DNA from: Oceanispirochaeta sp.
GTDB lineage: Bacteria > Spirochaetota > Spirochaetia > DSM-2461
DNA length: 64,000 bases
Reading direction: 5' to 3'
Assembly: GCA_963663385.2 (NCBI GenBank)
Contig: CAXXXD010000003.1
Span: 1,585,649-1,649,648 of the forward strand
Shown: in pieces, positions 37,591 through 64,000 of the stretch
How positions within the stretch are numbered: position 1 is the stretch's first letter
How the letters are laid out: every line of letters begins with the position of its first letter
Program-made: the position numbers and the translations under genes
The notes under the pieces: generated by a model
Told to the model about the DNA's origin: nothing
The model's input: the letters and a program-made list of their open reading frames with translations, nothing else
Databases searched by the model: none

Positions 37591-37619
37591 GTTTTTACCA
37601 TAAAAATATTTACAAGTAT

Positions 37620-37649
37620 AAAAAACCTGCCCTTTCGGGCAGGTTTTTT
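37620..37649 (+). terminator. Intrinsic terminator of the arg operon
   Basis: AAAAACCTGCCC-tttc-GGGCAGGTTTTT. Confidence 0.9.
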
Positions 37650-37796
37650 ATACACATACAGTGGGAACGGGATTTAAACCCGGAATTAATGAAACCCGTT
37701 TATTGTCTCCCCTTTGGGGAGATTGAGAGGGGCCTGGTATTGAAATTCCGGCAGTATTCCGCCTATGATGAAACATAAAATAGATGGAGGAATAAT

Positions 37797-46853: not shown

Positions 46854-47782
46854 TGCTGTTGGAAAGTATTGCCTTTATTCTCGGTACAACCCTTATGTAT
46901 GCCACTCCTCTGATCTATACATCCCTGGGCGGCACCATATCCGAAAACTCAGGCGTTGTTAACATCGGCCTGGAAGGAATTATGTTTATGGGTGCCTTTA
47001 TAGGTGCGGGGATCGGATATTATGCTCATAGCGGCTGGATCGGATTCCTGGCGGCCGGTGTTGTGGGGGGGCTTTTCGGTCTGCTCCATGCGGTAGCCTG
47101 TATAACCTTTTCTGCGGATCAGGTGGTTTCGGGAATCGCCATCAACTTTCTGGGTCCGGGATTTGCCCTGCTCCTCAGCCGGTTGATGTTCGACGGGGCT
47201 GCCATGACCATTCCCCTTCCCCTGGATGAGAAAATCACACGCCCTCTGAACGGCCTGTTCCCGCAGAACTCTTTCTTTGATGTTATCTTTAACCGCTATT
47301 CTACGGTTTACCTGGCCTTTCTGCTGGTATTCCTGATGTGGTTCCTTCTGTATAAAACCCGTCTGGGACTTCGTATCAGAGCCGTGGGAGAACATCCCGA
47401 GGCTGCTGAAACCCTGGGTATCGATGTCTACAAAGTCCGGTACTTCTCTGTTACCATGTCCGGTTTTCTGGCCGGTCTGGGAGGAGCTGCCATGAGTGTT
47501 GCCATCGTATCCCAGTTCAGGGTCACCCTCATTTCCGGTCAGGGATTTATTGCCCTGGCGGCCATGATCTTCGGAAAGTGGAAACCCCAGGGAGCCATGT
47601 GGGCCTGTCTGCTCTTCGGTCTGGCCCAGGGAATCGTTATCTACATGCCCCGTACGGGACTGGAGATTTCCTCCCAGCTGCTCAGCATGCTGCCCTATCT
47701 GCTGACTCTGATCCTGCTGGTGGTATTCGTAGGCAAGTCTGTTGCGCCCAGCGCAGACGGCGAGATTTACGAAAGAAACTAG
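46850..47782 (+). CDS. ABC transporter permease
   Basis: SGVVNIGLEG, RAVGEHP, GFIALAAMIFGKW. Confidence 0.93.
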   Translation: MMLLESIAFILGTTLMYATPLIYTSLGGTISENSGVVNIGLEGIMFMGAFIGAGIGYYAHSGWIGFLAAGVVGGLFGLLHAVACITFSADQVVSGIAINFLGPGFALLLSRLMFDGAAMTIPLPLDEKITRPLNGLFPQNSFFDVIFNRYSTVYLAFLLVFLMWFLLYKTRLGLRIRAVGEHPEAAETLGIDVYKVRYFSVTMSGFLAGLGGAAMSVAIVSQFRVTLISGQGFIALAAMIFGKWKPQGAMWACLLFGLAQGIVIYMPRTGLEISSQLLSMLPYLLTLILLVVFVGKSVAPSADGEIYERN

Positions 47783-47877: not shown

Positions 47878-48780
47878 TTGTCTTATTATAGCAGTATGTC
47901 TTTCAACTATGATTCATGTTTATCCCTTTCCGGGGAAATCGATGCTGCTACTGGATTATACTACTACAATGCACGGTGGTATGATGCGGGGACCGGAAGG
48001 TTTATATCGGAAGACCCGGCTAGAGACGGCCAAAACTGGTTCAATTATGTATCAAACAACCCTCTAAAATTTGTCGATCCTACAGGAATGCGCCGTGTTG
48101 ATGGCGATAGTGCTGATGATGAAAGAGATCGAGAGCAGAGAAATACGGAATATGAAAAAAAGAAAAGCGATAGAAAAGATAGAAGAGATGCACAAGGCAG
48201 AGAAGATCGAAGAAATGATCTTAAAGATAAAAAAGATGATCTGATTAATTCCGGTATGGATAATGACCGAAATATAGATCGGCTTAATGAACAGATTCAA
48301 GCAGTTGAAGATGAGATAATGGATAATATAACTGAAGCTGCATATGATGAAATATCTGAAACGGTTGATGAAATCCTTAACAATGGTTTGGCCGAAACAG
48401 CGAAATCGTTTGTAGGTGGTAATTATCATTCTGGTGGAGAAACTCCATCACCTGAAGGACAAGGATTAGACTGTTCTTCGACATCTATGATTTCAGCTGA
48501 AACAGTAAGTGGTGTTGGTATTGGTGATCGAACTGCTGATGAAATGGCCAATGATCCTAACCTACTGAAACCGGGAAATGGTGGAGTGGGTTCTCAAAAC
48601 TTTTATGATTGGGATGGTGATGGTGTTTACGATCATGTTACGACAGTTACAGAAGCAGGAGAAGTTCATCCATCATCAAATGCTGGTAAAATTAATATGG
48701 TTGAAAATGGCTTCTTAGATCAATATGCAAAGAAAAAGATAAATAAAAACTACAATTGGGGTTATATTTTATGGGATTGA
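47878..48780 (+). CDS. Orphan Rhs core plus C-terminal toxin 1 (NlpC/P60-like peptidoglycan hydrolase); 5'-truncated, start uncertain
   Basis: EIDAATGLYYYNARWYD...GRFISEDP...YVSNNPLKFVDPTG Rhs core. C-terminus AKSFVGGNYHSGG...GLDCSS...YDHV...EVHPSS follows the NlpC/P60 Cys-His-His order. Confidence 0.8.
   Translation: MSYYSSMSFNYDSCLSLSGEIDAATGLYYYNARWYDAGTGRFISEDPARDGQNWFNYVSNNPLKFVDPTGMRRVDGDSADDERDREQRNTEYEKKKSDRKDRRDAQGREDRRNDLKDKKDDLINSGMDNDRNIDRLNEQIQAVEDEIMDNITEAAYDEISETVDEILNNGLAETAKSFVGGNYHSGGETPSPEGQGLDCSSTSMISAETVSGVGIGDRTADEMANDPNLLKPGNGGVGSQNFYDWDGDGVYDHVTTVTEAGEVHPSSNAGKINMVENGFLDQYAKKKINKNYNWGYILWD
47959..48130 (+). repeat. Rhs-core direct repeat, copy 1 (pairs with 57116-57293)
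   Basis: 40 bp exact match, 48001-48040 = 57158-57197; similarity runs from the YYYN codons through DPTGMRRVDG...DDERD. Confidence 0.9.
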
Positions 48781-49232
48781 GGAATATTTTTCTAATAACA
48801 GTACAAATCCTTTTATTTTCATCAGTAATATTTTCTGATGATATAATATTATTAAATAAAAAGTCTGCTGACTTCGAATTAATAATAGATGATGACATTG
48901 TTCAGATTTACACTGATTATTATTCTGATTCAGACATATGTGAAAGCTTCATAGGTGTTCTGAAGTCTGATATTAATCGGGATCATGTAATTTATTTTCA
49001 TGATGATATACTTGAAGATGCAACAGGGAAAATCTTGATATCATTTAAGAATCATGAGTTAATCTTTTATGGATTTAAGATGAAATTGTCTTACCCAAAT
49101 AATAAAGAATATTCTCCGGGTATAGTTTTAACTCCTTATTTTGCCTCTGGAAATTCTGTAGGAGATACTAAGACATTTAATTGGGATTATAAGAATAAAA
49201 CCTTTAAAGATGCTTTTTCTCACATTCCGTAA
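48771..49232 (+). CDS. Putative immunity protein 1 (exported)
   Basis: Overlaps the toxin stop codon; AT-rich; N-terminus MGLRNIFLITVQILLFSSVIFS is signal-like. Confidence 0.75.
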   Translation: MGLRNIFLITVQILLFSSVIFSDDIILLNKKSADFELIIDDDIVQIYTDYYSDSDICESFIGVLKSDINRDHVIYFHDDILEDATGKILISFKNHELIFYGFKMKLSYPNNKEYSPGIVLTPYFASGNSVGDTKTFNWDYKNKTFKDAFSHIP

Positions 49233-49234
49233 AT

Positions 49235-49292
49235 TCATAACGTCCATGCTCACCTGCAGGCTTGCCTGTCTGGTGCAGCACTGTTGTTATGA
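49235..49292. repeat. attC-like imperfect palindrome, copy 1 (58 bp)
   Basis: TCATAAC-gtccat-GCTCACC...GGTGCAGC-actgtt-GTTATGA: complementary outer boxes and one unpaired base in the inner arm. Confidence 0.7.
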
Positions 49293-49580
49293 CCCCTAAT
49301 TTTATTTTTCGCCGGAATGACATTTCACGTTGAAAAAGCTTTTCCGGCAGTAACCGCAGGCCGAACCTCCGCCGTCGTGGCTCCGGTTCTGATCAGAAAA
49401 TCCGTTATCTGCAGCTGCCGTCCCTGGCAGCTGTCCGCTTCGCCATATAACGAATTCTCTGTTCACCTGCTTTTAGTGGTAAGTTTATAGATTCCAGAAT
49501 AATTTTATACAGGAGCTGGCGGAGTGTTTTCTCTTTTTATCATAATTGCAAAAATGTAGTTACAATAGTATAATTATATT

Positions 49581-49868
49581 ATGACCTTTGAATGGGATAA
49601 AGAAAAAGACATAATCAACCAGAAGAAACACGGATTGTCATTCAAAGACGCCAAGTATGTTTTTGCCGACCCGTTTGCCCTGGTTCGTGAGGATTACACG
49701 GATTCAGAGCCCCGTCAGCAAATTATGGGGCATATCGGCGGCATTCTGCTGGTGCTTGTGGTTTACACCATGAGAGATCAGCAGGATGAAGACGTTTTCA
49801 GAATAATATCTGCCCGAAAAGCAACAACGGCAGAGAGGAGGAAGTATGAAGCAGGAAAATGGTTTTAG
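49581..49868 (+). CDS. BrnT-family toxin
   Basis: FEWDKEK...NQKKHGLSF...RIISARKAT..ERRKY. Confidence 0.92.
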   Translation: MTFEWDKEKDIINQKKHGLSFKDAKYVFADPFALVREDYTDSEPRQQIMGHIGGILLVLVVYTMRDQQDEDVFRIISARKATTAERRKYEAGKWF

Positions 49869-50139
49869 TCCTATGGATGAAGACACAAAGGCAAGACTCG
49901 CCAAGCTTGCCGAATTACCCGACTCCGAAATAGATACCAGTGACATAAAAGAGTGGTCTGATGAGGATTTTTCCAGGGCCGTCCCTTTTCACGATATTTA
50001 CAAGCCCAGGAAAGAGCAGATAACCACCCGAATCGATGCGGACATTCTTCTTTGGCTAAAAAGTCATGGTAAAGGGTATCAGACTTTGCTGAATGATTTA
50101 CTTCGAAAAGAGATGAATATGGAATGCAGTAAGCAGTAA
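49846..50139 (+). CDS. BrnA-family antitoxin
   Basis: IDTSDI...KEQITTRIDADILLWLKSHGKGYQT; overlaps brnT. Confidence 0.9.
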   Translation: MKQENGFSPMDEDTKARLAKLAELPDSEIDTSDIKEWSDEDFSRAVPFHDIYKPRKEQITTRIDADILLWLKSHGKGYQTLLNDLLRKEMNMECSKQ

Positions 50140-50191: not shown

Positions 50192-50587
50192 CTATTTGGA
50201 TTGATTTTCCTTTAATTCATTCATGGCTCTCAAATCCTTGATATGCTCAAGGATTTTTTTTTGGTCTGCCGGTGGGAGTTCTTCCAGTTCTTTCAGGCGT
50301 TTTGTAAGTTTCAGATTTGTATCCTGTGCAAGAATATTTTCATCCTTCAGCCCGAAAAGAGTGTCAGTCGAGACATTCAGAGCAATGGCGAATCTTGCTA
50401 TCATTTCATCATAAAGTCGGACTCTTCCGCTTTCATAGGCAGATAATGCGGTTCTTGTAATGCCAATTGTTTCAGCCAATTCAAGCTGTGTAAGTCCTCT
50501 CTGTTTTCTTATTTTGGCAATGATTTCACCAATGCTTTTGTCACTGATTTTTAAAGGGGGTAATTCTTTCTTCGGTACTTGAGGCAT
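50192..50587 (-). CDS. XRE-family HTH transcriptional regulator
   Basis: IRKQRGLTQLELAETIGITRTALSAYESG; divergent from the replication operon. Confidence 0.92.
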   Translation of the reverse strand: MPQVPKKELPPLKISDKSIGEIIAKIRKQRGLTQLELAETIGITRTALSAYESGRVRLYDEMIARFAIALNVSTDTLFGLKDENILAQDTNLKLTKRLKELEELPPADQKKILEHIKDLRAMNELKENQSK

Positions 50588-50830: not shown

Positions 50831-51115
50831 ATGGAAATCCGCACCAGCGACCTGTACGAGGCCGCCTACTACCTGACTAAAGGGGTAACGCCCCACCTGG
50901 TTACCTGCCGCCTTCTGGCCGGGAACGTCACCAAAGATATCATCTGCGACTTCTACTTCGAAGGAGAAGTCATTCCTCATCTTCAAAGCGACTTTTTGAG
51001 AAGTGAAGCGGTTGTCAATCTGGTTCTCTTCCGCCGTTGTTACGGAGAGATCAACAACTACGCCAACAATGCCAAGCGGGACTACCGGAAAAGCATGAAA
51101 GGGGGCCACCAGTGA
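50831..51115 (+). CDS. Small hypothetical protein (DUF5659-like)
   Basis: GGAG RBS; TSDLYEAAYYLTKG motif; first gene of the coupled operon. Confidence 0.65.
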   Translation: MEIRTSDLYEAAYYLTKGVTPHLVTCRLLAGNVTKDIICDFYFEGEVIPHLQSDFLRSEAVVNLVLFRRCYGEINNYANNAKRDYRKSMKGGHQ

Positions 51116-51378
51116 AAGACAGCCTCATAACAGCCAACCTGGCCGAAGTCGCCTACCTTTTGGATCAGCACCACCGGCTGGTCGATGTTTACCTGAGCAT
51201 GGGAACCCTGGGAGCCCAGGAGATGGTTTTCACTCTGGAAGGAGAGAACATTACCGGAGACCGTAAACTTTTTCTGGGTACCTGCCGGACTCCTTTGAAG
51301 AAGATCCCCGAGACTCTGGAAGTGATCCGGAACCTCCTCTGGAAGAAGGAAGAGGAGGCCCAGTGTGAATCTAGATAA
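51112..51378 (+). CDS. Small hypothetical protein, probable paralogue of the upstream ORF
   Basis: GTGA start/stop overlap; TANLAEVAYLL...FTLEGE aligns with TSDLYEAAYYL...FYFEGE. Confidence 0.65.
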   Translation: MKDSLITANLAEVAYLLDQHHRLVDVYLSMGTLGAQEMVFTLEGENITGDRKLFLGTCRTPLKKIPETLEVIRNLLWKKEEEAQCESR

Positions 51379-52171
51379 AATGGGTGATGCAAAGCATCAG
51401 GGCCCCATTCTTAGTCGCCAAAAGATCGTATTTACCAACCAGAAAGGCGGGGTCGGCAAGACCACCATGACAAGAGAACTGGGCTGTTACCTGGCCCATG
51501 ATAAAGGGCTGAAAACCCTTCTGGTAGACTGTGACAGCCAAGGCAACCTTTCCAGAAGTTTCTTCGACCAGCCGGGAAAAGGACTGTACGAGGCCATTAC
51601 AGAAGATGAAATTCACGTTCAAAGTGTCAGTGAGAATCTTGAGATCCTTTCCGGATCGATCTATCTCAGCCTGCTGGAAAAACAGCTTGTGGGAGAGTTC
51701 GACGGCTATGTACGGTTTAAGGAGCTTTTCGAACGGGAGGAGTTCGAATCCTACGATTTTATCCTGATGGATACTCCCCCTTCCCTGGGAATCCTCACGG
51801 GCAATGCCCTTGTAGCCGCCGATCACCTTGTGATGCCCATTACAGCCAGTCAGTACGCCCTGCAGGGAGCTTCGGACCTTCTGGAAACCATGGAGAAGAT
51901 CAGGCGGAGCCTGAACCCGACTCTTTACGCCCTGGGAGTCGTCCTTAACAGCTACAACCCGGTTACCCTGATCGGCCGGGAGCTGAAAGCCGAACTGACC
52001 GGGTTCTTCGGAGAAACCTGTTTTGAGACCGTGATCAGCCGGTCGATCCGGATCGAGGAAGCCATTGCCGAGAGGAAGGGCCTGGTCCAGCTGTCCGGTA
52101 ACCAATGGAAAAGGCCCGCGGAGGAAGTAAGGGCTCTGGGGAATGAACTTTTATCCCGGTGCGGTCTATGA
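51365..52171 (+). CDS. ParA/Soj-family ATPase
   Basis: NQKGGVGKTT, VDCDSQGN, DFILMDTPPSLG. Confidence 0.93.
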   Translation: MNLDKMGDAKHQGPILSRQKIVFTNQKGGVGKTTMTRELGCYLAHDKGLKTLLVDCDSQGNLSRSFFDQPGKGLYEAITEDEIHVQSVSENLEILSGSIYLSLLEKQLVGEFDGYVRFKELFEREEFESYDFILMDTPPSLGILTGNALVAADHLVMPITASQYALQGASDLLETMEKIRRSLNPTLYALGVVLNSYNPVTLIGRELKAELTGFFGETCFETVISRSIRIEEAIAERKGLVQLSGNQWKRPAEEVRALGNELLSRCGL

Positions 52172-54828
52172 CTTCTTCAAAGCTGAAAGGCAGGAGCCCT
52201 TTGAAGGGGGCTTCCCTGCTGGACGAGTTTGAAAAAGACCGGATCAAGGCACAAACCGATATAGTCAGTGTGATTACCTCCTATGGTATCTCTCTCGAGA
52301 AGAAAGGCTCTTCTTTCATGGGGCTGTGCCCCTTCCATGAGGACAAGAATCCTTCTCTTTCGGTGGACCAGTCCAAGGGACTGTTTCACTGTTTCGGCTG
52401 CGGGGCCGGCGGGGATGTGTTTGACTTTGTGATGAGGCACCAGGGCGTGGAGTTTAAAGAGGCTCTGGCTATCTTGAAAGGAGATGAGGGAAAGGCATTC
52501 AGGCCGAAGGAGGTACCGGCTCCGCCGGTGCCACTGGAGGGCGAACCTCTGCTTAAAACAACCTCATTGGAAGATGTAACGGATTACTATCACCGTCAGC
52601 TCTCCCATCCGGAAGCAGTTTCCTACCTGAAAAAACGGGGGATCTATGCTCCGGAGCTTCTGGGACGGCTGAAAGTCGGCTACTGCCCCGGAGACTTGAA
52701 AGACAAACTGTCCGAAGTCCAGTTTCAGGAGCTGAAAGAGGCGGGCCTCTTTACGGAAAAGAACCTTGAAACCTTCCGGGACTGCATTGTTTTCCCACTC
52801 TATTCTTCCGATGGGAAAGTCCGGAGATTTTACGGCAGGAAGATAAATGAAAGGTCCAGGGTGAAACACCTTTATTTGAAAGGGCCCCACCGGGGCCTGT
52901 TTAACCACCAGGCATTCAAGGTTTACCCGGACCGGATGATCCTGACAGAATCGGTGATTGATGCCTTTTCGCTGATGGTTTTGGGATGCGAAAATGTTTC
53001 CTGCTCTTACGGCGCCAACGGGGTGACCAGTCACCTTGTAGAAGCTTTGAAAGAAAACCGTACAAAGGAAGTTGTCCTTGCTTTCGACGGTGATGAAGCG
53101 GGCCGGGAGGCTGCAGAAAAGGTCGGAAAAACTCTTTTCGAAAAGGGTATTGCCGTCAGAACCATCTTCCCGCCTTCCAAGGACTGGAATGAGTCATTAC
53201 CAAAAATCACAAAGGAACAAGTTCTATCCCTGATCGAGAGCAGCATTCTGAAACCGCCGGAGGGTGATAAAAGGCCACTGGTGGCCGATGGTAAGTACCT
53301 GTTTCATTGTTCTTCTCTGGATTACCGGATCATCGGAGTTAAAGAAGGATTTGTCAGTTCCCTGAAGGTGAATGTCCGCTGTCAGAGGCCGGCGGATGAT
53401 ACTGTCAAGTTCATCGACAATGTAGACCTCTTCTCCGCCCGGAGCCGGACCCTTTTCTCTGTCGCGGTCGCTCGCCGGTTCGGCGAGGAATCCGCCAGGA
53501 TTGAAAAGGATTTACTGGATATCCTGGACTATTTGGAAGAAGAGTCTGAACGGGCCCTTTCGGATACCGGTTTAAAGAAGGGGTCTTTGACCCCTGAGGA
53601 AGAGGCAGCTGGCCTCTCCCTTTTACAGGATCCCAATCTTTTCGACAGGATTGTCAGGGATACGGAAGCTCTGGGCTACGTGGGAGAGGAGGAAAACAAG
53701 ATCCTTATGTACCTGGCCGCCTCCTCCCGTCTGATGGCCGATCCGGTAAGCGTAATCGTCATCTCCCAGTCCGCCGCTGGTAAAAGCTTTCTGATCGATA
53801 CGGTAAAAAAGCTGATGCCCGAAGAGGATGTGATTTCCATGACCAGCCTTTCCGACCAGGCCTTGAACTACCTTCCCGATGAAGCTCTGCTGCACAAGTT
53901 TCTGGTCATGGGAGAGGCGGTCCACTCGGAGAGCGTAGATCATCAGATGCGGGAGATGTTATCCGGAAAAGAGCTGTCCCGATTGGTGACCACCAAGGAT
54001 GAGAAGACCGGAAGAATGACCAGCAAGCTGGTACGGAAAAAAGTCATTGTTTCCGCCGTGATGTCCTCCACTTCGACGGAGATCAACCCGGAGAACGCCT
54101 CCCGCTGCTTTGTGGTAAACACAGACGAGAGCCGGGAGCAGACCAGGGAGATCCACCGGAGGCAGAGGGAGAAGTACACCCTGGAAGCCTACCGGAAGAA
54201 GGAAGAAGATCTCCCGGAAATCATTAAGACCCACCAGGCCGCCCAAAGGCTCCTGAAAAACCGGGTAATTGTTAATCCTTTCGCCGGGGAGCTGGACTTT
54301 CCCTCTTCCATGATGCGGAGCCGGCGGGACCATGAACGGTTTGTAGACCTCATTGCCTGCGTGTGCTTCCTGAGGCAGTACCAGAAACAGGAGAAGAATG
54401 ATCAGGGGAAGCATTACATAGAGTGCGACCTGGAAGACTACAAGGTGGCTTACCGGATCATGAAGACCCTGCTTTCTTCCACCATGACCACTTTACCCCG
54501 TTCGGCTGTCATTTTGTATGAGGAGCTCCGGGATCTTCTTAAAAGCAAAGCGGAGAAGGACGGGCTATTCCTGACCGATATCTGGGTGACCCAGCGGGAG
54601 ATCCGGGAGGTCTCCGGATTCTCCCATGAGCTGATCAAGAAGAATATGAGGCTTTTGACAGAGTATGAATACATCCGGAGCAAAGGATCGGGCCGGGGTA
54701 TGACCAGGCGTTACGGACTGGCGGCTGATTCTGACCTAGTTCTTTTCGATGACTCGGTGATTCCTTCACCTGACCATTTAACCAGGGAACCGGGTACAAA
54801 GCGGGTACGGAATGATGAAAAACAATAA
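52168..54828 (+). CDS. DnaG-type primase (CHC2 zinc finger + Toprim) fused to a C-terminal P-loop ATPase/helicase-like domain
   Basis: CPFHEDKNPS...FHCFGC; ILTESVIDA and AFDGDEAG (Toprim); SQSAAGKS Walker A; ATGA overlap with parA. Confidence 0.9.
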   Translation: MTSSKLKGRSPLKGASLLDEFEKDRIKAQTDIVSVITSYGISLEKKGSSFMGLCPFHEDKNPSLSVDQSKGLFHCFGCGAGGDVFDFVMRHQGVEFKEALAILKGDEGKAFRPKEVPAPPVPLEGEPLLKTTSLEDVTDYYHRQLSHPEAVSYLKKRGIYAPELLGRLKVGYCPGDLKDKLSEVQFQELKEAGLFTEKNLETFRDCIVFPLYSSDGKVRRFYGRKINERSRVKHLYLKGPHRGLFNHQAFKVYPDRMILTESVIDAFSLMVLGCENVSCSYGANGVTSHLVEALKENRTKEVVLAFDGDEAGREAAEKVGKTLFEKGIAVRTIFPPSKDWNESLPKITKEQVLSLIESSILKPPEGDKRPLVADGKYLFHCSSLDYRIIGVKEGFVSSLKVNVRCQRPADDTVKFIDNVDLFSARSRTLFSVAVARRFGEESARIEKDLLDILDYLEEESERALSDTGLKKGSLTPEEEAAGLSLLQDPNLFDRIVRDTEALGYVGEEENKILMYLAASSRLMADPVSVIVISQSAAGKSFLIDTVKKLMPEEDVISMTSLSDQALNYLPDEALLHKFLVMGEAVHSESVDHQMREMLSGKELSRLVTTKDEKTGRMTSKLVRKKVIVSAVMSSTSTEINPENASRCFVVNTDESREQTREIHRRQREKYTLEAYRKKEEDLPEIIKTHQAAQRLLKNRVIVNPFAGELDFPSSMMRSRRDHERFVDLIACVCFLRQYQKQEKNDQGKHYIECDLEDYKVAYRIMKTLLSSTMTTLPRSAVILYEELRDLLKSKAEKDGLFLTDIWVTQREIREVSGFSHELIKKNMRLLTEYEYIRSKGSGRGMTRRYGLAADSDLVLFDDSVIPSPDHLTREPGTKRVRNDEKQ

Positions 54829-54954: not shown

Positions 54955-56001
54955 ATGAATAATGATAAAAGGCTGACGCGAGAGCGTCAGGGTTCCTTTT
55001 CTCATAAAGCGGCAGGAACTTCCCGAAGGGAAGTGTCCGGAAGCGCAGGAAACATACATAAAGCCCATCAAACCCTGCTAGACAGCTATCTGGAAGAGAA
55101 AAAAGCCCTGGGAGCTTCTTCCCAGGCTCTCCGGAACGCCCACAGCCGGATTCCCCATTTTCTGGCCTATCTGGAAGAAGAAGGACTGACGGCGGATCAG
55201 ACGGACATCCGGGCGGCCAGAGGCTTCATGGCACACCTTACAGAACGGGGAACCGGAAGCGGAGAAGACTACAGGGTAAACACCCTGGCTTCCTACCGTC
55301 AGGCCGCTTCCTCCTTCAGCCGGTGGATGAGGGATTCGGGAAAGCTTGTTTCCGATCCCTTTACCGCCGTCAAAGCTCCCCGGGGTGAAAGGATCATTCC
55401 CAGGGATTTACCCATGGAGAAAGAACTGGCCCGGCTTCTCTCCCGTCTGGCGGACTTCTCTGCCGTGAAGGGACTGAAAGCCCGGAAAAGGCGGTATTTG
55501 ACCCATGTGCTGGCCGAGCTGCTTTACGCCTCGGGCCTCCGAATCAGCGAAGCGGCTGACCTTCAGGAAGAGAACCTGAATCTTGAAAGGAAAGAGATCA
55601 CCGTTATCTCCGGCAAGGGAGGATTCGACCGGAAGGTCTACCTGAACGACTACGCCGCCAGTGTATTAAGGCGGTTTCTAACCGTTCGGGATGAGATCCT
55701 GACCGGCAAGAGCAACAGGGAAAGGCTTTTCGGCTCTTCCTCGGATGAACTGGGAAAGGCTTTCAACAGGGATCTGAAAGAGGCTTGCGAAGAAGTCGGA
55801 ATTCCTTTTATGACAGCCCACAGCCTCCGGCACTGTCTGGGCTACCATCTTCTGAAACAAGGCTGCCCCTTGAGGCAGATTCAGCAGATCCTGGGGCACC
55901 GGGCCATCGGGAACACCGAGATTTACACCAAAGTGGATGTGAAAGAGGTAAAGGAGCAGCTGGACCGCCACCATCCCAGACAGCTGGGAAAAAGGAGATG
56001 A
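54955..56001 (+). CDS. Tyrosine recombinase 1 (XerC/D-like)
   Basis: YASGLRISE, GKGG, HSLRH, LGH, TEIY; start could lie further downstream. Confidence 0.92.
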   Translation: MNNDKRLTRERQGSFSHKAAGTSRREVSGSAGNIHKAHQTLLDSYLEEKKALGASSQALRNAHSRIPHFLAYLEEEGLTADQTDIRAARGFMAHLTERGTGSGEDYRVNTLASYRQAASSFSRWMRDSGKLVSDPFTAVKAPRGERIIPRDLPMEKELARLLSRLADFSAVKGLKARKRRYLTHVLAELLYASGLRISEAADLQEENLNLERKEITVISGKGGFDRKVYLNDYAASVLRRFLTVRDEILTGKSNRERLFGSSSDELGKAFNRDLKEACEEVGIPFMTAHSLRHCLGYHLLKQGCPLRQIQQILGHRAIGNTEIYTKVDVKEVKEQLDRHHPRQLGKRR

Positions 56002-57017
56002 AAAGACTCTCAAGGCAGAAAGCCCTTTCCCTTTTCGCCGGATACCTGAAGGCCCAGGGATTTAAAGAGGGAACTATTCGGACAAAGAAAGCTCAGCTTA
56101 CCCCCTTCTTTACCTTTTTGGATGAAACTGGCACGAAAGACATCCGGGATGTGAAAAGGAGTGATATTGTCTCCTTCCTTTCCTGGCTGCAGGAGCATCC
56201 CGGAGAGAGAGGACGGGGCTACAAGGACTCAACGAGGATGAGTATTTTCACCTCCGTGAAAAAGTTCTATCTCTGTTTGTATGAAAACAACCTGGTTTTG
56301 TCCTCACCGGTGGAGACAGTCCGCTTCGGGAAACGGCAGGAGCGGATCAAAGAAGTTTTGAGTGAGGACGAGACCGCACTCTTTCTGGATTCCATCGATA
56401 TTCACCAGCCCCTGGGGCTCCGGGACAGGGCCCTGTTTGAACTGATTTACTCTTCCGGTCTCCGGTCTTCCGAAGCGGCCCATCTGGATGTGAAAGATTA
56501 CGATCCGGCCAGCCGGTTATTGTGGATCCACCAGAGCAAGTTTTCCAAGGACCGCCGGGTCCCAGTGACCAAGGCGGCCGCCTGGTTTCTGGATAAGTAT
56601 CTGGAAGGCGTGAAAGCACACCACAGGCCTCTGATCCTTTCCGGGGGCTACCGGTTTACTCACGGAGGGATCAACAAACGGTTTAAACTGCTGAGTGAAA
56701 AGTGCGGACTCTACCGGAAAGGGCTGACCGTCCACTCCCTCCGGCACGGCTGTGCTTCCCATCTTCTGGCCCACGGGGCGGAGATCCGCTATGTTCAGGA
56801 GCTTTTGGGGCATGAATCGGTGGAAACCACGGTGGTTTACTCCCGGCAAAGCGAAGAGAACATCAAGGCTTCCTACAGGCAGTACCATCCCAGGGAGAAT
56901 TTCCATTTCGCCGAGGTGACCGACTCCTATCTTGATTCACTGGAAACTCTGGTTCGGGACAGTCTGAAGCAAAGAGAGAAGAATAGAAAAGCGCTTGCCC
57001 GTAAGATAGGTAAATGA
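55998..57017 (+). CDS. Tyrosine recombinase 2 (XerC/D-like)
   Basis: ATGA overlap and AGGAG RBS; LRDRALFELIYSSGLRSSE, SKFSKDR, HSLRH, LGH, TVVY. Confidence 0.93.
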   Translation: MKRLSRQKALSLFAGYLKAQGFKEGTIRTKKAQLTPFFTFLDETGTKDIRDVKRSDIVSFLSWLQEHPGERGRGYKDSTRMSIFTSVKKFYLCLYENNLVLSSPVETVRFGKRQERIKEVLSEDETALFLDSIDIHQPLGLRDRALFELIYSSGLRSSEAAHLDVKDYDPASRLLWIHQSKFSKDRRVPVTKAAAWFLDKYLEGVKAHHRPLILSGGYRFTHGGINKRFKLLSEKCGLYRKGLTVHSLRHGCASHLLAHGAEIRYVQELLGHESVETTVVYSRQSEENIKASYRQYHPRENFHFAEVTDSYLDSLETLVRDSLKQREKNRKALARKIGK

Positions 57018-57034
57018 TAGTTTATTAACGTACC

Positions 57035-57994
57035 ATGACAGCTACTAGAGAAATTCCAGTTTCAACGCCTCCTTGCAGGTCTCCTTTTTGCAACGATTTA
57101 GGGGGAGAGGGTGATTATTACTACAATGCAAGGTGGTATGATGCGCAGACGGGGAGATTTATATCGGAAGACCCGGCTAGAGACGGCCAAAACTGGTATT
57201 CATATGTAACAAATAATCCGCTGAAATACATAGATCCTACCGGAATGCGCCGTGTTGATGGTGATGGTGATGGTGCAGATGATGAGAGAGATCAGAAAGA
57301 TCGTCAACGAGAACAGCGAGAAAGAAATCGAGAAGCAAAGAAGAAAACAAAAATAAGAGATACTACTGATAGGATTAAAGACCTTCAGGAAAATGGAACT
57401 GGTGGATTATGGGATCGGTTTAGAATTTCCAATAATAAAGCGAGATTGAAAAATCAATTGAAATCTCTTGCATCAACTGGCTCTGATAATGCCAGAGACT
57501 GGATTAAAGCAAATACTGAAATCAATATTACCCGTGGTGTATATGAAACACCTGGTAGCGATGATTGGGATGGCCAAATGAATCTAGATTTTCAAGGTGT
57601 TACTTTGGAATCAATAAGAGTTCAAACTTGGGCTGATGATGAAAATCAAGAATTTGGAATCGATGGTACTATAGCTACAGGTATAAGTATTCAAGGTGAA
57701 TTACTTGATTGGGGAAATAATCCTGATAGAATTTATCTTTTTGATCCTGGATTTAATATTCATGGACTACCTGAGGGTGTGACAAATCCAGGAAGTTTAG
57801 GATGTATAATTGGCCAAAATGGAGATTATACTAACTTCACTTCAACAATGAAGGATATTGGTTTCAGATTTGGAACAAGTGCAAAGAGTCTTAATGATCC
57901 ATCAGATCTGATAAATGTTAATATAAAAACAGTTAATCCATATGATCGAGGTCTTCATAATCTAGGATATATGCTACCGAGGGGAAATAGATGA
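57035..57994 (+). CDS. Orphan Rhs core plus C-terminal toxin 2 (L,D-transpeptidase-fold, Tlde1/DUF2778-like)
   Basis: YYYNARWYD...GRFISEDP...NNPLKYIDPTG core; C-terminal GFNIHG-x8-SLGCI motif; the first 27 aa are not Rhs-like. Confidence 0.78.
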   Translation: MTATREIPVSTPPCRSPFCNDLGGEGDYYYNARWYDAQTGRFISEDPARDGQNWYSYVTNNPLKYIDPTGMRRVDGDGDGADDERDQKDRQREQRERNREAKKKTKIRDTTDRIKDLQENGTGGLWDRFRISNNKARLKNQLKSLASTGSDNARDWIKANTEINITRGVYETPGSDDWDGQMNLDFQGVTLESIRVQTWADDENQEFGIDGTIATGISIQGELLDWGNNPDRIYLFDPGFNIHGLPEGVTNPGSLGCIIGQNGDYTNFTSTMKDIGFRFGTSAKSLNDPSDLINVNIKTVNPYDRGLHNLGYMLPRGNR

Positions 57995-58833
57995 AGAAAA
58001 GAGTATTATATCTGTTCTTTTGTTTTGTCTGTTATCCTTTATTTTCAAATAATATTTTAGAGGGTAAAACATATAGTTCTGATGTGAATGGATTAAGGCA
58101 GATAATTGAATTTAGTGACGGTACATTGAAATATACCGCGTATTATGACGGAGATAAGGATGAAGAATATTCCACTACTTATCGAGTTGAAGAAAATGAG
58201 GGTATTTCATATTTAGTATTAGGTAAAGAATCAGAAAAATGGCTTGCTATGTTATCTGAAGATTATATCTTTCTGTATAAGGAAGATGGCGAGCCTTTTT
58301 TTGATGGATGGTGGACTGGATCAAAATTTGACCCGACATTATTCAATTACTATAGTAAAGACCTTTTTGAGACTGACAGTTTTCTTATTGAAGAAATAGA
58401 CAATAAGAAAATATCATACCCTTCAGCAAATCTAGGAACAATTGCAATACCATATCCATGGGTAGAAGGTGATGAGAATGATGGTGTCGGGGTACACATT
58501 ACAGGACTCTTTAATTCAGGAGAAAGATTCCAGCATTACTTAGTGTTTTCAAATGGTTATGTCTCATATAAAAGGCCTGACTTATACAGAAAGAATGGTA
58601 GAATTAAAAAAATTCGTATAACAGATATTGAATTGGGTAAATCAAAAGATGTTGATATTAAAGATACTCCAAATCTACAGTATATTTATGTTTCTGATAT
58701 TATAACAGGTAATAAAGGTTTTACGATTGAGATCTTAGAAACATATAGTGGAAGTAAATACAATGATACTTGTATCAATTTCCTGGGAGTCTATTATGTT
58801 CATAATACAAGCCCCTTATTTGATTATAAATAA
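57991..58833 (+). CDS. Putative immunity protein 2 (exported; C-terminal discoidin/NADase-type glycan-binding-like domain)
   Basis: ATGA overlap with the toxin; signal peptide MKKRVLYLFFCFVCYPLFS; PWVEG...NGY...LYRKNGRIKKI...IEILETYSGSKYNDTCI. Confidence 0.72.
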   Translation: MKKRVLYLFFCFVCYPLFSNNILEGKTYSSDVNGLRQIIEFSDGTLKYTAYYDGDKDEEYSTTYRVEENEGISYLVLGKESEKWLAMLSEDYIFLYKEDGEPFFDGWWTGSKFDPTLFNYYSKDLFETDSFLIEEIDNKKISYPSANLGTIAIPYPWVEGDENDGVGVHITGLFNSGERFQHYLVFSNGYVSYKRPDLYRKNGRIKKIRITDIELGKSKDVDIKDTPNLQYIYVSDIITGNKGFTIEILETYSGSKYNDTCINFLGVYYVHNTSPLFDYK

Positions 58834-58912
58834 CCATGAGCTCACCTGCCCAACTGCTGAACAATCCGTTCCGGAACCAGTAAAACGGACAGGTGCAGCG
58901 CTCTTGTTATGA
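58828..58912. repeat. attC-like imperfect palindrome, copy 2 (85 bp)
   Basis: AAATAAC-catga-GCTCACCTG...CAGGTGCAGC-gctctt-GTTATGA; the immunity stop codon TAA lies inside the left box. Confidence 0.7.
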
Positions 58913-59201
58913 TTCCCAATTTAATTCTTTCGCCGGAATAACATTTCACGTTGAAGAAGTCTTACCGGCAGTAATCGCAGGCCGAACCTCCGCCGTCGTG
59001 GCTCCGGTTCTAAACAGAAAATGCGTTATCTGCAGCTGCCGTCCCTGGCAGCTGTCCGCTTCGCCATATAACGAATTCTCTGTTCACCTGCTTTTAGTGG
59101 TAAGTTTATAGATTCCAGAATAATTTTATACAGGAGCTGGCGGAGTGTTTTCTCTTTTTATCATAATTGCAAAAATGTAGTTACAATAGTATAATTATAT
59201 T

Positions 59202-59489
59202 ATGACCTTTGAATGGGATAAAGAAAAAGACATAATCAACCAGAAGAAACACGGATTGTCATTCAAAGACGCCAAGTATGTTTTTGCCGACCCGTTTGCC
59301 CTGGTTCGTGAGGATTACACGGATTCAGAGCCCCGTCAGCAAATTATGGGGCATATCGGCGGCATTCTGCTGGTGCTTGTGGTTTACACCATGAGAGATC
59401 AGCAGGATGAAGACGTTTTCAGAATAATATCTGCCCGAAAAGCAACAACGGCAGAGAGGAGGAAGTATGAAGCAGGAAAATGGTTTTAG
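59202..59489 (+). CDS. BrnT-family toxin (copy 2)
   Basis: Translation identical to 49581-49868. Confidence 0.92.
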   Translation: MTFEWDKEKDIINQKKHGLSFKDAKYVFADPFALVREDYTDSEPRQQIMGHIGGILLVLVVYTMRDQQDEDVFRIISARKATTAERRKYEAGKWF

Positions 59490-59760
59490 TCCTATGGATG
59501 AAGACACAAAGGCAAGACTCGCCAAGCTTGCCGAATTACCCGACTCCGAAATAGATACCAGTGACATAAAAGAGTGGTCTGATGAGGATTTTTCCAGGGC
59601 CGTCCCTTTTCACGATATTTACAAGCCCAGGAAAGAGCAGATAACCACCCGAATCGATGCGGACATTCTTCTTTGGCTAAAAAGTCATGGTAAAGGGTAT
59701 CAGACTTTGCTGAATGATTTACTTCGAAAAGAGATGAATATGGAATGCAGTAAGCAGTAA
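59467..59760 (+). CDS. BrnA-family antitoxin (copy 2)
   Basis: Translation identical to 49846-50139. Confidence 0.9.
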   Translation: MKQENGFSPMDEDTKARLAKLAELPDSEIDTSDIKEWSDEDFSRAVPFHDIYKPRKEQITTRIDADILLWLKSHGKGYQTLLNDLLRKEMNMECSKQ

Positions 59761-59812
59761 GCAGGGTTAGGTTTCTCATTCTCTTTGTAATAGCCGGATA
59801 TCGAAAGAATAT

Positions 59813-60208
59813 CTATTTGGATTGATTTTCCTTTAATTCATTCATGGCTCTCAAATCCTTGATATGCTCAAGGATTTTTTTTTGGTCTGCCGGTGGGAGT
59901 TCTTCCAGTTCTTTCAGGCGTTTTGTAAGTTTCAGATTTGTATCCTGTGCAAGAATATTTTCATCCTTCAGCCCGAAAAGAGTGTCAGTCGAGACATTCA
60001 GAGCAATGGCGAATCTTGCTATCATTTCATCATAAAGTCGGACTCTTCCGCTTTCATAGGCAGATAATGCGGTTCTTGTAATGCCAATTGTTTCAGCCAA
60101 TTCAAGCTGTGTAAGTCCTCTCTGTTTTCTTATTTTGGCAATGATTTCACCAATGCTTTTGTCACTGATTTTTAAAGGGGGTAATTCTTTCTTCGGTACT
60201 TGAGGCAT
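59813..60208 (-). CDS. XRE-family regulator (copy 2)
   Basis: Translation identical to 50192-50587. Confidence 0.92.
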   Translation of the reverse strand: MPQVPKKELPPLKISDKSIGEIIAKIRKQRGLTQLELAETIGITRTALSAYESGRVRLYDEMIARFAIALNVSTDTLFGLKDENILAQDTNLKLTKRLKELEELPPADQKKILEHIKDLRAMNELKENQSK

Positions 60209-60451
60209 GATTTATCTTATCATATAACTTGACGAGTGATACATGATGTGTCATTATTAAACAGTCAAATGCTACTTGACACACTTTTGAAATATTGCCG
60301 TTGGCAATAAAAAAGCCCGTTTCCGAGTGTTTGGCGACCTTCGGGAAACAGGCTTAAAAACAACATAGGAGTAGAACTCCATGCACTTACAATTCTACCA
60401 TAAATTCTTATCCCCGCAAATGCCGTTCTGCTCCTTCCGATGGAGTAAAGA

Positions 60452-60736
60452 ATGGAAATCCGCACCAGCGACCTGTACGAGGCCGCCTACTACCTGACTA
60501 AAGGGGTAACGCCCCACCTGGTTACCTGCCGCCTTCTGGCCGGGAACGTCACCAAAGATATCATCTGCGACTTCTACTTCGAAGGAGAAGTCATTCCTCA
60601 TCTTCAAAGCGACTTTTTGAGAAGTGAAGCGGTTGTCAATCTGGTTCTCTTCCGCCGTTGTTACGGAGAGATCAACAACTACGCCAACAATGCCAAGCGG
60701 GACTACCGGAAAAGCATGAAAGGGGGCCACCAGTGA
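60452..60736 (+). CDS. Small hypothetical protein (DUF5659-like, copy 2)
   Basis: Translation identical to 50831-51115. Confidence 0.65.
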   Translation: MEIRTSDLYEAAYYLTKGVTPHLVTCRLLAGNVTKDIICDFYFEGEVIPHLQSDFLRSEAVVNLVLFRRCYGEINNYANNAKRDYRKSMKGGHQ

Positions 60737-60999
60737 AAGACAGCCTCATAACAGCCAACCTGGCCGAAGTCGCCTACCTTTTGGATCAGCACCACCGGCT
60801 GGTCGATGTTTACCTGAGCATGGGAACCCTGGGAGCCCAGGAGATGGTTTTCACTCTGGAAGGAGAGAACATTACCGGAGACCGTAAACTTTTTCTGGGT
60901 ACCTGCCGGACTCCTTTGAAGAAGATCCCCGAGACTCTGGAAGTGATCCGGAACCTCCTCTGGAAGAAGGAAGAGGAGGCCCAGTGTGAATCTAGATAA
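60733..60999 (+). CDS. Small hypothetical paralogue (copy 2)
   Basis: Translation identical to 51112-51378. Confidence 0.65.
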   Translation: MKDSLITANLAEVAYLLDQHHRLVDVYLSMGTLGAQEMVFTLEGENITGDRKLFLGTCRTPLKKIPETLEVIRNLLWKKEEEAQCESR

Positions 61000-61792
61000 A
61001 ATGGGTGATGCAAAGCATCAGGGCCCCATTCTTAGTCGCCAAAAGATCGTATTTACCAACCAGAAAGGCGGGGTCGGCAAGACCACCATGACAAGAGAAC
61101 TGGGCTGTTACCTGGCCCATGATAAAGGGCTGAAAACCCTTCTGGTAGACTGTGACAGCCAAGGCAACCTTTCCAGAAGTTTCTTCGACCAGCCGGGAAA
61201 AGGACTGTACGAGGCCATTACAGAAGATGAAATTCACGTTCAAAGTGTCAGTGAGAATCTTGAGATCCTTTCCGGATCGATCTATCTCAGCCTGCTGGAA
61301 AAACAGCTTGTGGGAGAGTTCGACGGCTATGTACGGTTTAAGGAGCTTTTCGAACGGGAGGAGTTCGAATCCTACGATTTTATCCTGATGGATACTCCCC
61401 CTTCCCTGGGAATCCTCACGGGCAATGCCCTTGTAGCCGCCGATCACCTTGTGATGCCCATTACAGCCAGTCAGTACGCCCTGCAGGGAGCTTCGGACCT
61501 TCTGGAAACCATGGAGAAGATCAGGCGGAGCCTGAACCCGACTCTTTACGCCCTGGGAGTCGTCCTTAACAGCTACAACCCGGTTACCCTGATCGGCCGG
61601 GAGCTGAAAGCCGAACTGACCGGGTTCTTCGGAGAAACCTGTTTTGAGACCGTGATCAGCCGGTCGATCCGGATCGAGGAAGCCATTGCCGAGAGGAAGG
61701 GCCTGGTCCAGCTGTCCGGTAACCAATGGAAAAGGCCCGCGGAGGAAGTAAGGGCTCTGGGGAATGAACTTTTATCCCGGTGCGGTCTATGA
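60986..61792 (+). CDS. ParA-family ATPase (copy 2)
   Basis: Translation identical to 51365-52171. Confidence 0.93.
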   Translation: MNLDKMGDAKHQGPILSRQKIVFTNQKGGVGKTTMTRELGCYLAHDKGLKTLLVDCDSQGNLSRSFFDQPGKGLYEAITEDEIHVQSVSENLEILSGSIYLSLLEKQLVGEFDGYVRFKELFEREEFESYDFILMDTPPSLGILTGNALVAADHLVMPITASQYALQGASDLLETMEKIRRSLNPTLYALGVVLNSYNPVTLIGRELKAELTGFFGETCFETVISRSIRIEEAIAERKGLVQLSGNQWKRPAEEVRALGNELLSRCGL

Positions 61793-64000
61793 CTTCTTCA
61801 AAGCTGAAAGGCAGGAGCCCTTTGAAGGGGGCTTCCCTGCTGGACGAGTTTGAAAAAGACCGGATCAAGGCACAAACCGATATAGTCAGTGTGATTACCT
61901 CCTATGGTATCTCTCTCGAGAAGAAAGGCTCTTCTTTCATGGGGCTGTGCCCCTTCCATGAGGACAAGAATCCTTCTCTTTCGGTGGACCAGTCCAAGGG
62001 ACTGTTTCACTGTTTCGGCTGCGGGGCCGGCGGGGATGTGTTTGACTTTGTGATGAGGCACCAGGGCGTGGAGTTTAAAGAGGCTCTGGCTATCTTGAAA
62101 GGAGATGAGGGAAAGGCATTCAGGCCGAAGGAGGTACCGGCTCCGCCGGTGCCACTGGAGGGCGAACCTCTGCTTAAAACAACCTCATTGGAAGATGTAA
62201 CGGATTACTATCACCGTCAGCTCTCCCATCCGGAAGCAGTTTCCTACCTGAAAAAACGGGGGATCTATGCTCCGGAGCTTCTGGGACGGCTGAAAGTCGG
62301 CTACTGCCCCGGAGACTTGAAAGACAAACTGTCCGAAGTCCAGTTTCAGGAGCTGAAAGAGGCGGGCCTCTTTACGGAAAAGAACCTTGAAACCTTCCGG
62401 GACTGCATTGTTTTCCCACTCTATTCTTCCGATGGGAAAGTCCGGAGATTTTACGGCAGGAAGATAAATGAAAGGTCCAGGGTGAAACACCTTTATTTGA
62501 AAGGGCCCCACCGGGGCCTGTTTAACCACCAGGCATTCAAGGTTTACCCGGACCGGATGATCCTGACAGAATCGGTGATTGATGCCTTTTCGCTGATGGT
62601 TTTGGGATGCGAAAATGTTTCCTGCTCTTACGGCGCCAACGGGGTGACCAGTCACCTTGTAGAAGCTTTGAAAGAAAACCGTACAAAGGAAGTTGTCCTT
62701 GCTTTCGACGGTGATGAAGCGGGCCGGGAGGCTGCAGAAAAGGTCGGAAAAACTCTTTTCGAAAAGGGTATTGCCGTCAGAACCATCTTCCCGCCTTCCA
62801 AGGACTGGAATGAGTCATTACCAAAAATCACAAAGGAACAAGTTCTATCCCTGATCGAGAGCAGCATTCTGAAACCGCCGGAGGGTGATAAAAGGCCACT
62901 GGTGGCCGATGGTAAGTACCTGTTTCATTGTTCTTCTCTGGATTACCGGATCATCGGAGTTAAAGAAGGATTTGTCAGTTCCCTGAAGGTGAATGTCCGC
63001 TGTCAGAGGCCGGCGGATGATACTGTCAAGTTCATCGACAATGTAGACCTCTTCTCCGCCCGGAGCCGGACCCTTTTCTCTGTCGCGGTCGCTCGCCGGT
63101 TCGGCGAGGAATCCGCCAGGATTGAAAAGGATTTACTGGATATCCTGGACTATTTGGAAGAAGAGTCTGAACGGGCCCTTTCGGATACCGGTTTAAAGAA
63201 GGGGTCTTTGACCCCTGAGGAAGAGGCAGCTGGCCTCTCCCTTTTACAGGATCCCAATCTTTTCGACAGGATTGTCAGGGATACGGAAGCTCTGGGCTAC
63301 GTGGGAGAGGAGGAAAACAAGATCCTTATGTACCTGGCCGCCTCCTCCCGTCTGATGGCCGATCCGGTAAGCGTAATCGTCATCTCCCAGTCCGCCGCTG
63401 GTAAAAGCTTTCTGATCGATACGGTAAAAAAGCTGATGCCCGAAGAGGATGTGATTTCCATGACCAGCCTTTCCGACCAGGCCTTGAACTACCTTCCCGA
63501 TGAAGCTCTGCTGCACAAGTTTCTGGTCATGGGAGAGGCGGTCCACTCGGAGAGCGTAGATCATCAGATGCGGGAGATGTTATCCGGAAAAGAGCTGTCC
63601 CGATTGGTGACCACCAAGGATGAGAAGACCGGAAGAATGACCAGCAAGCTGGTACGGAAAAAAGTCATTGTTTCCGCCGTGATGTCCTCCACTTCGACGG
63701 AGATCAACCCGGAGAACGCCTCCCGCTGCTTTGTGGTAAACACAGACGAGAGCCGGGAGCAGACCAGGGAGATCCACCGGAGGCAGAGGGAGAAGTACAC
63801 CCTGGAAGCCTACCGGAAGAAGGAAGAAGATCTCCCGGAAATCATTAAGACCCACCAGGCCGCCCAAAGGCTCCTGAAAAACCGGGTAATTGTTAATCCT
63901 TTCGCCGGGGAGCTGGACTTTCCCTCTTCCATGATGCGGAGCCGGCGGGACCATGAACGGTTTGTAGACCTCATTGCCTGCGTGTGCTTCCTGAGGCAGT
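61789..64000 (+). CDS. CHC2-Toprim primase/ATPase (copy 2, partial)
   Basis: Sequence matches 52168-54379; cut by the window edge. Confidence 0.9.
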   Translation, partial: MTSSKLKGRSPLKGASLLDEFEKDRIKAQTDIVSVITSYGISLEKKGSSFMGLCPFHEDKNPSLSVDQSKGLFHCFGCGAGGDVFDFVMRHQGVEFKEALAILKGDEGKAFRPKEVPAPPVPLEGEPLLKTTSLEDVTDYYHRQLSHPEAVSYLKKRGIYAPELLGRLKVGYCPGDLKDKLSEVQFQELKEAGLFTEKNLETFRDCIVFPLYSSDGKVRRFYGRKINERSRVKHLYLKGPHRGLFNHQAFKVYPDRMILTESVIDAFSLMVLGCENVSCSYGANGVTSHLVEALKENRTKEVVLAFDGDEAGREAAEKVGKTLFEKGIAVRTIFPPSKDWNESLPKITKEQVLSLIESSILKPPEGDKRPLVADGKYLFHCSSLDYRIIGVKEGFVSSLKVNVRCQRPADDTVKFIDNVDLFSARSRTLFSVAVARRFGEESARIEKDLLDILDYLEEESERALSDTGLKKGSLTPEEEAAGLSLLQDPNLFDRIVRDTEALGYVGEEENKILMYLAASSRLMADPVSVIVISQSAAGKSFLIDTVKKLMPEEDVISMTSLSDQALNYLPDEALLHKFLVMGEAVHSESVDHQMREMLSGKELSRLVTTKDEKTGRMTSKLVRKKVIVSAVMSSTSTEINPENASRCFVVNTDESREQTREIHRRQREKYTLEAYRKKEEDLPEIIKTHQAAQRLLKNRVIVNPFAGELDFPSSMMRSRRDHERFVDLIACVCFLRQ

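Follow-up and report, generated by a model that had tools for sequence, protein, structure and literature searches.

The 64,000-nt stretch of Oceanispirochaeta DNA analyzed here, referred to as the window, carries two Rhs core ends with a pair of tyrosine recombinase genes between them, which raises the question of whether the intervening unit is mobile and at which nucleotides it joins the Rhs core. A first-pass annotation had placed a candidate attachment site at the codons for YYYNARWYD inside the core; the idea held, with the site itself shifted to an 11-bp segment at 57119–57129. The 9,157-bp unit (unit 1) is quite probably a mobile element with both ends at a fixed point of the Rhs core, likely inserted by site-specific integration of a circle through its own two tyrosine recombinases. 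This reading draws on the anatomy of the unit, the 11-bp exchange window, the occurrence of one tip and backbone at two loci, and in-frame fusions to rhs and cdiA genes in relatives.

Both ends of unit 1 lie inside an Rhs core, and its genes are on the plus strand except where stated. The left chromosomal flank, outside the element, consists of a host ABC permease gene (46850–47782, +, PF02653), approximately 150 bp without a core match and, on the resident side of the left junction, an eight-codon stretch encoding EIDAATGL (47935–47958, +). These residues had been read as upstream core in the first pass, and they are a real remnant of an Rhs core: the stretch matches three other Rhs cores of the genome at 14–16 of 24 nt and the spacer described below at 5 of 24. 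Tip A follows (47959–48780), and then a candidate immunity gene (gene A, 48756–49232), whose immunity function is suggested by its position and low GC content and which matched no family in Pfam or NCBIfam. An attC-like hairpin with ATAAC...GTTAT ends stands 3' of gene A (49236–49292; DNA fold z = -3.8, reached by 0 of 200 shuffles). The backbone continues with a BrnT-BrnA toxin-antitoxin pair (49581–50139, PF04365 and PF14384), a divergent XRE/Cro-type regulator on the minus strand (50192–50587, PF01381), two small ORFs (50831–51378) without a match in Pfam, NCBIfam, or PHROGs, a ParA-like ATPase (51365–52171, PF13614), and a CHC2 zinc finger-Toprim primase-like protein of 889 aa with a large C-terminal domain (52159–54828, PF01807 and PF13155). 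The C-terminal 517 aa of the latter matched 1,336 clusters at E<=1e-30 and no solved structure.

The backbone closes with tyrosine recombinase 1 (54955–56001) and tyrosine recombinase 2 (55998–57017, stop codon at 57015–57017), both assigned to PF00589 and both with intact catalytic motifs (R, HxxR, and H...Y in recombinase 1), and with a 98-bp element spacer (57018–57115). The recombinases score 154–189 bits against the XerC/XerD models TIGR02224 and TIGR02225, below the cut-offs of 330–335, and the genome has a separate XerC/XerD pair at C2:1.53 Mb. They also fall below the cut-off of the IntI model TIGR02249 (90 and 103 bits versus 265). Directly behind the spacer, tip B (57116–57994) is at once the displaced tip of unit 1 and the own tip of unit 2. 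It is followed by candidate immunity gene B with a discoidin-like domain (57991–58833, PF25302 and NF047619), a second attC-like hairpin (58827–58916; z = -2.9 for the bottom and -1.5 for the top strand), and the unit 2 backbone (58892–64000), which is 99.7% identical to that of unit 1, leaves contig C3, and resumes on contig C2. Apart from these units, an intergenic 38-bp imperfect palindrome at 37616–37653 of the window is probably a terminator.

Each tip has an Rhs-associated core that ends in PxxxxDPxG and then a variable domain, with a small gene behind. Tips A and B score 64.7 and 55.7 bits against TIGR03696 (cut-off 32.5), with alignments beginning at model positions 23 and 29, respectively. 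The variable domain of tip A has no Pfam match and resembles NlpC/P60 clusters at 0.90 in the ESM Atlas, while tip B gave Tlde1/DUF2778 at 0.78, a weak lead; none of 17 tips exceeded a Pfam cut-off. On such leads, tips A and B may be regarded as candidate toxins.

The spacer is identical in all three copies of the genome and contains an ATG-led frame of 27 codons (from 57035) in phase with the displaced tip. This leader frame is kept in all five close variants. Pairs of variants differ by 1–4 synonymous and 1–5 altered codons, and a ribosome site is not evident, so that translation of the leader is at most suggested. Within 57013–57115, a second ATG, overlapping the recombinase 2 stop, is in frame with the tip and runs into a stop codon after four codons; in a relic of G001 (L132), the frame from the ATG at the recombinase 2 stop is open right into the tip. 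A promoter and terminator scan found neither element in the region before tip A.

The point of exchange can be located by comparing copies within the genome, with positions numbered relative to the initial base of the first Tyr codon (the YY codons). The copies of tip A on C3 and C4 are identical at 821 of 822 nt; differences lie at +2 (47961) and further upstream, and the following 819 nt agree. All three right junctions have one spacer in common, are identical up to 57129, and show their first difference at +14 (57130). Because the left junctions diverge at +2 and the right junctions at +14, the exchange is pinned to the 11 bp from +3 to +13, that is, 47962–47972 (+) at the left, attL-type junction and 57119–57129 (+) at the right, attR-type junction, with the same sequence, TACTACAATGC, at both. 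The first pass had correctly put the start of YYYNARWYD at 57116, 98 bp after the recombinase 2 stop, and this junction does lie inside the Rhs core, but it is the right-hand end of unit 1 rather than the left, which lies at 47962. Two right junctions of G003 with one spacer differ at +7, and the exchange would narrow to 57119–57122 if close relatives share the point. The perfect run common to the left and right junctions at the exchange measures 12 bp on C3 and 14 bp on C4. Cores of 11–13 bp are too short for RecA, which needs longer identity.

A 40-bp exact match between 48001–48040 and 57158–57197 (+), at an offset of 9157, had been reported in the first pass, and both coordinates and length are exact. 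As an attachment site or joining point, it was rejected: it belongs to the conserved core at +42 to +81, 29 bp downstream of the exchange window, and the lone cores C4b and C1, which carry different tips, share an exact run of 50 bp. Folding of the junction strand showed no special structure (z about 0), and a repeat finder returned nothing convincing at the junctions. The best dyad at the window's junction pairs 3 of 6 arm positions, and that of G003 4 of 6. Inverted arms around a 6-bp spacer were seen in one-recombinase lineages, namely Lonsdalea (6/6 and 5/6), E. coli (5/6), and Enterobacter (5/6). As the best over the 24 registers tried, a 5/6 dyad arises by chance in 12% of random windows.

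The assembly is 98% complete, comprises four contigs, and contains seven Rhs core ends, all of them in open frames of 278–330 aa; no full-length YD-repeat delivery gene was found in the window or the assembly. With no resident rhs gene, fusion at the window locus joins the eight-codon relic only. The proposal that integration fuses the incoming tip in frame to a resident rhs gene therefore fails for the window itself, and it is borne out by full-gene fusions in G017, G452, E. coli, and, with cdiA, Enterobacter. As its targets in the Oceanispirochaeta genome were orphan core relics, the element there is probably no more than a passenger, retaining immunity genes but unable to arm a delivery protein.

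Contig C3 breaks off in unit 2, where it shares 5,057 bp with the end of C2 at 99.96% identity. In six of the eight genus relatives that have the permease, it lies 26–660 bp from the gene flanking the C2 end of the array, with no Rhs core between the two genes. The contig overlap and the adjacency of the flanking genes in relatives establish the array order from C3 to C2 as permease, relic-tip A, backbone, spacer-tip B, backbone, spacer-tip C, and host gene. A third backbone, on C4, again has tip A at its left and a fourth tip at its right. Two loci thus carry tip A and the backbone together but differ in left flank and in displaced tip, and the tip-plus-backbone element is real and recently mobile. 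That contig C3 ends inside a repeat could point to a tandem created by misassembly, or to chance duplication of a decayed prophage beside Rhs fragments. However, unbroken contigs from independent runs cover each part and branch at the junction positions, the flanking genes are neighbors in the six relatives, and the same layout is found again in distantly related bacteria with complete genomes, so that an artefact or chance duplication is extremely unlikely. Contig depth, at about 2.4–3.1 times that of unique parts for the backbone and about 2 times for tip A, fits the assembly and gives no sign of amplified circles, although depth in these data does not equal copy number. Lone tips at C4:311712, C4:1140030, and C1:282885 start at (D)LKYTGK directly behind host stop codons, close to the site of the FTG lineage described below, and are possibly relics of another element.

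Constancy of the breakpoint across units and homologues, which the first-pass annotation had named as the test of its proposal, was found to the nucleotide: in all nine recombinase 2 homologues of at least 92% identity, the core starts 98 bp after the stop with an identical junction. A total of 30 recombinase 2 matches were detected in 151 genomes, with an Rhs core at most 250 bp downstream in 19, further off in two, and none in six, while three lie at a contig edge; the six matches without a core are inferred to be housekeeping enzymes. Among 12 tabulated junctions of the YY-codon class, which were chosen by us from seven genomes, similarity to full cores is in every case lost at the first Tyr codon or no more than 6 nt from it, and GG at -6/-5 is always kept. 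Their upstream sequences are of several unrelated types that meet the same codon. In G007, the tip follows the end of a host gene at exactly the junction base. On contig C2 of G007 (from L037:10770), the final copy of the tip agrees with the others over 536 bp and then diverges, and the tips of G019 and G007 have near-identical starts.

The breakpoint is fixed within a lineage only, and different lineages use different conserved codons. The sites are FTG, YYxNAR, DGL, and DPIG codons in Rhs and 13 bp of VENN codons in CdiA. In a 33-recombinase tree, enzymes with a common site group together three times with strong support: the FTG users G017 and G130 (100/99), the DPIG users (100/100), and the DGL users G019a and G017C1 (100/99). 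The tree does not show a single clade for the window's enzymes and the proteobacterial ones. The link between the window and proteobacterial elements is suggested instead by their architecture and by primases 30–34% identical along their length.

Full-length rhs genes were found in G003, G017, G019, and G452, and these relatives display the fusion that the window cannot. G017 has a full rhs (a 3,390-aa frame) joined to tip A, then spacer-tip A and spacer-tip B, at FTG codons; the exchange lies within -37 to -11, and the junctions share 27 bp. G452 shows the same pattern with a 2,751-aa frame and junctions that share 106 bp. Two distinct elements stand behind a full rhs in G019, one with its joint at DGL and the other at YFN. 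In the same genome (L111–L112, G019:C1 about 3431300–3433000), two spacer-tip units without a backbone stand behind a 3,487-aa rhs frame and are displaced tips whose element was lost. Loose contig ends in runs X2 and X3 match the full-length rhs and spacer of G019, so a G019-like carrier is present in both runs.

The one-recombinase version occurs in 56 of 5,426 complete E. coli genomes. There, 11 of 12 examined post-xerC junctions, drawn from eight genomes and one plasmid record of largely clonal kin, fall at one base at DPIG, at two different rhs loci; L076 lacks the junction. One E. coli tip is fused to a full rhs in L072 and found behind xerC in L155. On the Enterobacter plasmid L156, cdiA-tip A, leader-tip A, and leader-tip B share only 13 bp (VENN codons), and the in-frame leader of the displaced tip is again present. 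To the eye, the leader on displaced CdiA tips (L156:18862–19902 and L069:24862) resembles a lipoprotein signal peptide.

These junctions bear on a different account, in which the spacer-core junction is ancestral and has been passed on intact, RecA exchanges tips by way of the approximately 130-bp conserved core as in the model of Jackson et al., and the recombinases only resolve circle dimers. The runs common to the junctions of G017 and G452 are long enough for homologous recombination, the cores are 70–85% identical with exact runs of 40–50 bp, and the long variable core fragments of E. coli (478 and 1,460 bp) indicate that homologous recombination also acts in the arrays. Nevertheless, right junctions with the same spacer diverge at the first wobble positions (+7 and +14) and left junctions with the same tip at +2, the CdiA junctions have only their 13 bp in common, and one codon is met by several unrelated spacers. 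Swapping by RecA alone is accordingly considered unlikely, and site-specific integration by the element's recombinases is retained as the explanation of the junctions.

The attC-like hairpins suggest another placement of the ends. Hairpins with ATAAC...GTTAT ends stand behind all seven tip-immunity pairs and, by BLAST, nowhere else in the genome: at C4:310393, C4:301267, C4:1138968, C2:1863778, and C1:281441, in addition to 49236–49292 and 58827–58916 of the window. They are of three types, often with toxin-antitoxin genes behind them, and a gene resembling integron integrases (IntI-like; family assigned by eye from the sequence) is located at C2:1688173. The hairpins or post-immunity repeats could accordingly be the true ends, with the tip-immunity pairs moved as integron-like cassettes by the host IntI-like enzyme and the Rhs junction passive. 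This is very unlikely, as the backbone carries tip A at its left at two loci while the right-hand tips differ in all three copies, identity between units 1 and 2 begins approximately 130 bp past the hairpin and not at its GTT, and the E. coli and CdiA junctions fall at toxin codons without reference to hairpins. An integron contribution, alongside the Rhs-core ends favored here, may still be made by the hairpins and the host gene. Each attC-like site of the window is followed by a repeat of 120–240 bp with a second hairpin (49293–49460 and 58917–59075), partial copies of which end lone tips; this repeat could be the place where backbones gain new tips.

The unit is best read, from the arrangement of its junctions, as a site-specific integrative element targeting toxin-tip boundaries, and established tyrosine-recombinase biology is the basis on which circle integration is proposed. 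A circle carrying spacer, tip, immunity gene, and backbone would recombine with the same codons of a resident core, so that the resident gene would receive the incoming tip and the old tip and its immunity gene would end up behind the recombinases. The displaced tip would thereby acquire an in-frame, ATG-led leader. Further circles entering at the regenerated left site could build up tandem arrays, replication and maintenance of the circle may fall to the primase-like protein and ParA, and recombination between backbones or post-immunity repeats might free a backbone with a different tip.

No free-circle or empty-site joint is listed among the contigs of four public runs, a form of data from which rare forms are dropped. 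The circular plasmid records of single units (L066–L068) are not diagnostic of excision. The 8.8-kb record L067 is the same as a single repeat of chromosomal tandems and contains a long fragment of core, and is no proof because homologous looping or assembly collapse explains the circle; the two spacer-type junctions of the 11.3-kb L066 fit excision as well as looping or assembly collapse.

On balance, the comparison favors a wider reading: a widespread class of self-replicating integrative elements, from spirochaetes to approximately 1% of complete E. coli genomes, would have their attachment sites at toxin-tip-boundary codons (FTG, YYxNAR, DGL, and DPIG of Rhs; VENN of CdiA) and would constitute the predicted episomal tip pool. 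Their insertion would re-arm the delivery protein, keep the old immunity gene, and give the displaced tip an in-frame leader, with a lipoprotein-like signal in Enterobacter.

The described system closest to the backbone is PhRepA, the "phage-related repeat A" of Photorhabdus, a primase-integrase-HTH-SymE repeat beside haemagglutinin genes (Zamora-Lagos et al., 2018, PMC6267812). By its available description, PhRepA resembles the window element in a primase and integrase pair, a Cro/C1 HTH gene, tandem clusters in which one complete long gene accompanies truncated remnants, and copy-number differences between strains. It differs in having one recombinase, SymE, and a haemagglutinin gene, whereas the window element has two recombinases, ParA, BrnTA, and Rhs; no SymE or haemagglutinin-repeat gene was found among the scanned window ORFs. 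SymE occurs in the E. coli relatives and haemagglutinin genes in the Enterobacter relatives. The accessible text on PhRepA speaks of an "adhesion region," without an attachment site, a toxin-tip reading, or a mechanism, and in the one supplementary file searched, the term "attachment" is absent and VENN appears only as a table label (PMC6267812).

In the C-terminal displacement model for rhs, a homologous circle delivers a new tip and displaces the previous one downstream; an episomal tip pool was predicted, and no integrase was known with Rhs (Jackson et al., 2009, PMC2935791). As far as the consulted portion goes, that model expects core fragments of variable length and no integrase, in contrast to the fixed start per lineage and the recombinases and primase seen here. 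For orphan cdiA-CT/cdiI arrays, integrase genes were noted among the orphans and modules were suggested to enter cdiA and displace the old one, without, in the sections available, a defined element, site, or recombinase family (Ruhe et al., 2016, PMC4927057). Salmonella orphan tips are reported to be expressed from internal promoters (PMC7043789). In rAID systems of Bacteroidales, a XerD-like enzyme accompanies immunity arrays with integron-like repeats (Ross et al., bioRxiv 10.1101/471110), and XerC/D adjoins polyimmunity loci (Zhang et al., 2012, PMC3482391). As described in the parts of these reports at hand, such loci likewise tie a XerD-like recombinase to genes of interbacterial conflict, but they are immunity-only arrays behind a fixed recombinase, with no toxin fusion, primase, or toxin-gene target.

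RIT elements (recombinase in trio), with three adjacent tyrosine recombinases, are a different case, as the window element has two recombinases only. SXT is known to integrate at prfC. The dusA islands are integrative elements that enter a coding gene and replace its end (PMC4482086). As proposed for the window element, dusA islands and SXT integrate by a tyrosine recombinase within an open reading frame, which is restored; what they restore is a single housekeeping function, whereas the toxin domain supplied by the window element varies from case to case.

Searches of the open-access literature yielded no account of targeting at toxin-tip codons, and term searches of PMC8138268, PMC3150448, PMC5131962, PMC11606950, PMC4428218, and PMC11278526 returned no description of the element in the searchable text. 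Within that coverage, a backbone of this layout has been described once, as PhRepA, without sites or mechanism, and targeting at toxin-tip codons appears to be new. The origin of new Rhs and CdiA tips and of orphan arrays has stood unanswered since 2009; in the prevailing model, RecA acts on a postulated circle for which neither carrier nor integrase is known. The element offers a concrete carrier, a named enzyme pair, and a site mapped to 11 bp, which makes a plasmid recombination assay possible, and because E. coli genomes and CdiA plasmids carry elements of like design, tests can be run in ordinary strains. The element is a likely source of the "orphan" toxin arrays of many bacteria. If the proposal is true, recombinases have evolved recognition of motifs that encode protein, and the conserved codons recognized differ between lineages.

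Full-length primase homologues at 30–34% identity occur on plasmids (33 records, 29 with at least 80% coverage). A metagenome scan with recombinase 2 gave 198 candidates, none confirmed, and a viral scan and phage search with the primase gave partial matches to the primase part only. By profile search, no Rhs core was found near related backbones in Leptospira plasmids, G374, G205, G461, G249, and G495, so not every member targets Rhs. In L071, L068, G205, G461, G249, G495, and G374, related primase-recombinase backbones of Leptospira plasmids and other spirochaetes stand in tandem beside large non-Rhs genes with variable ends.
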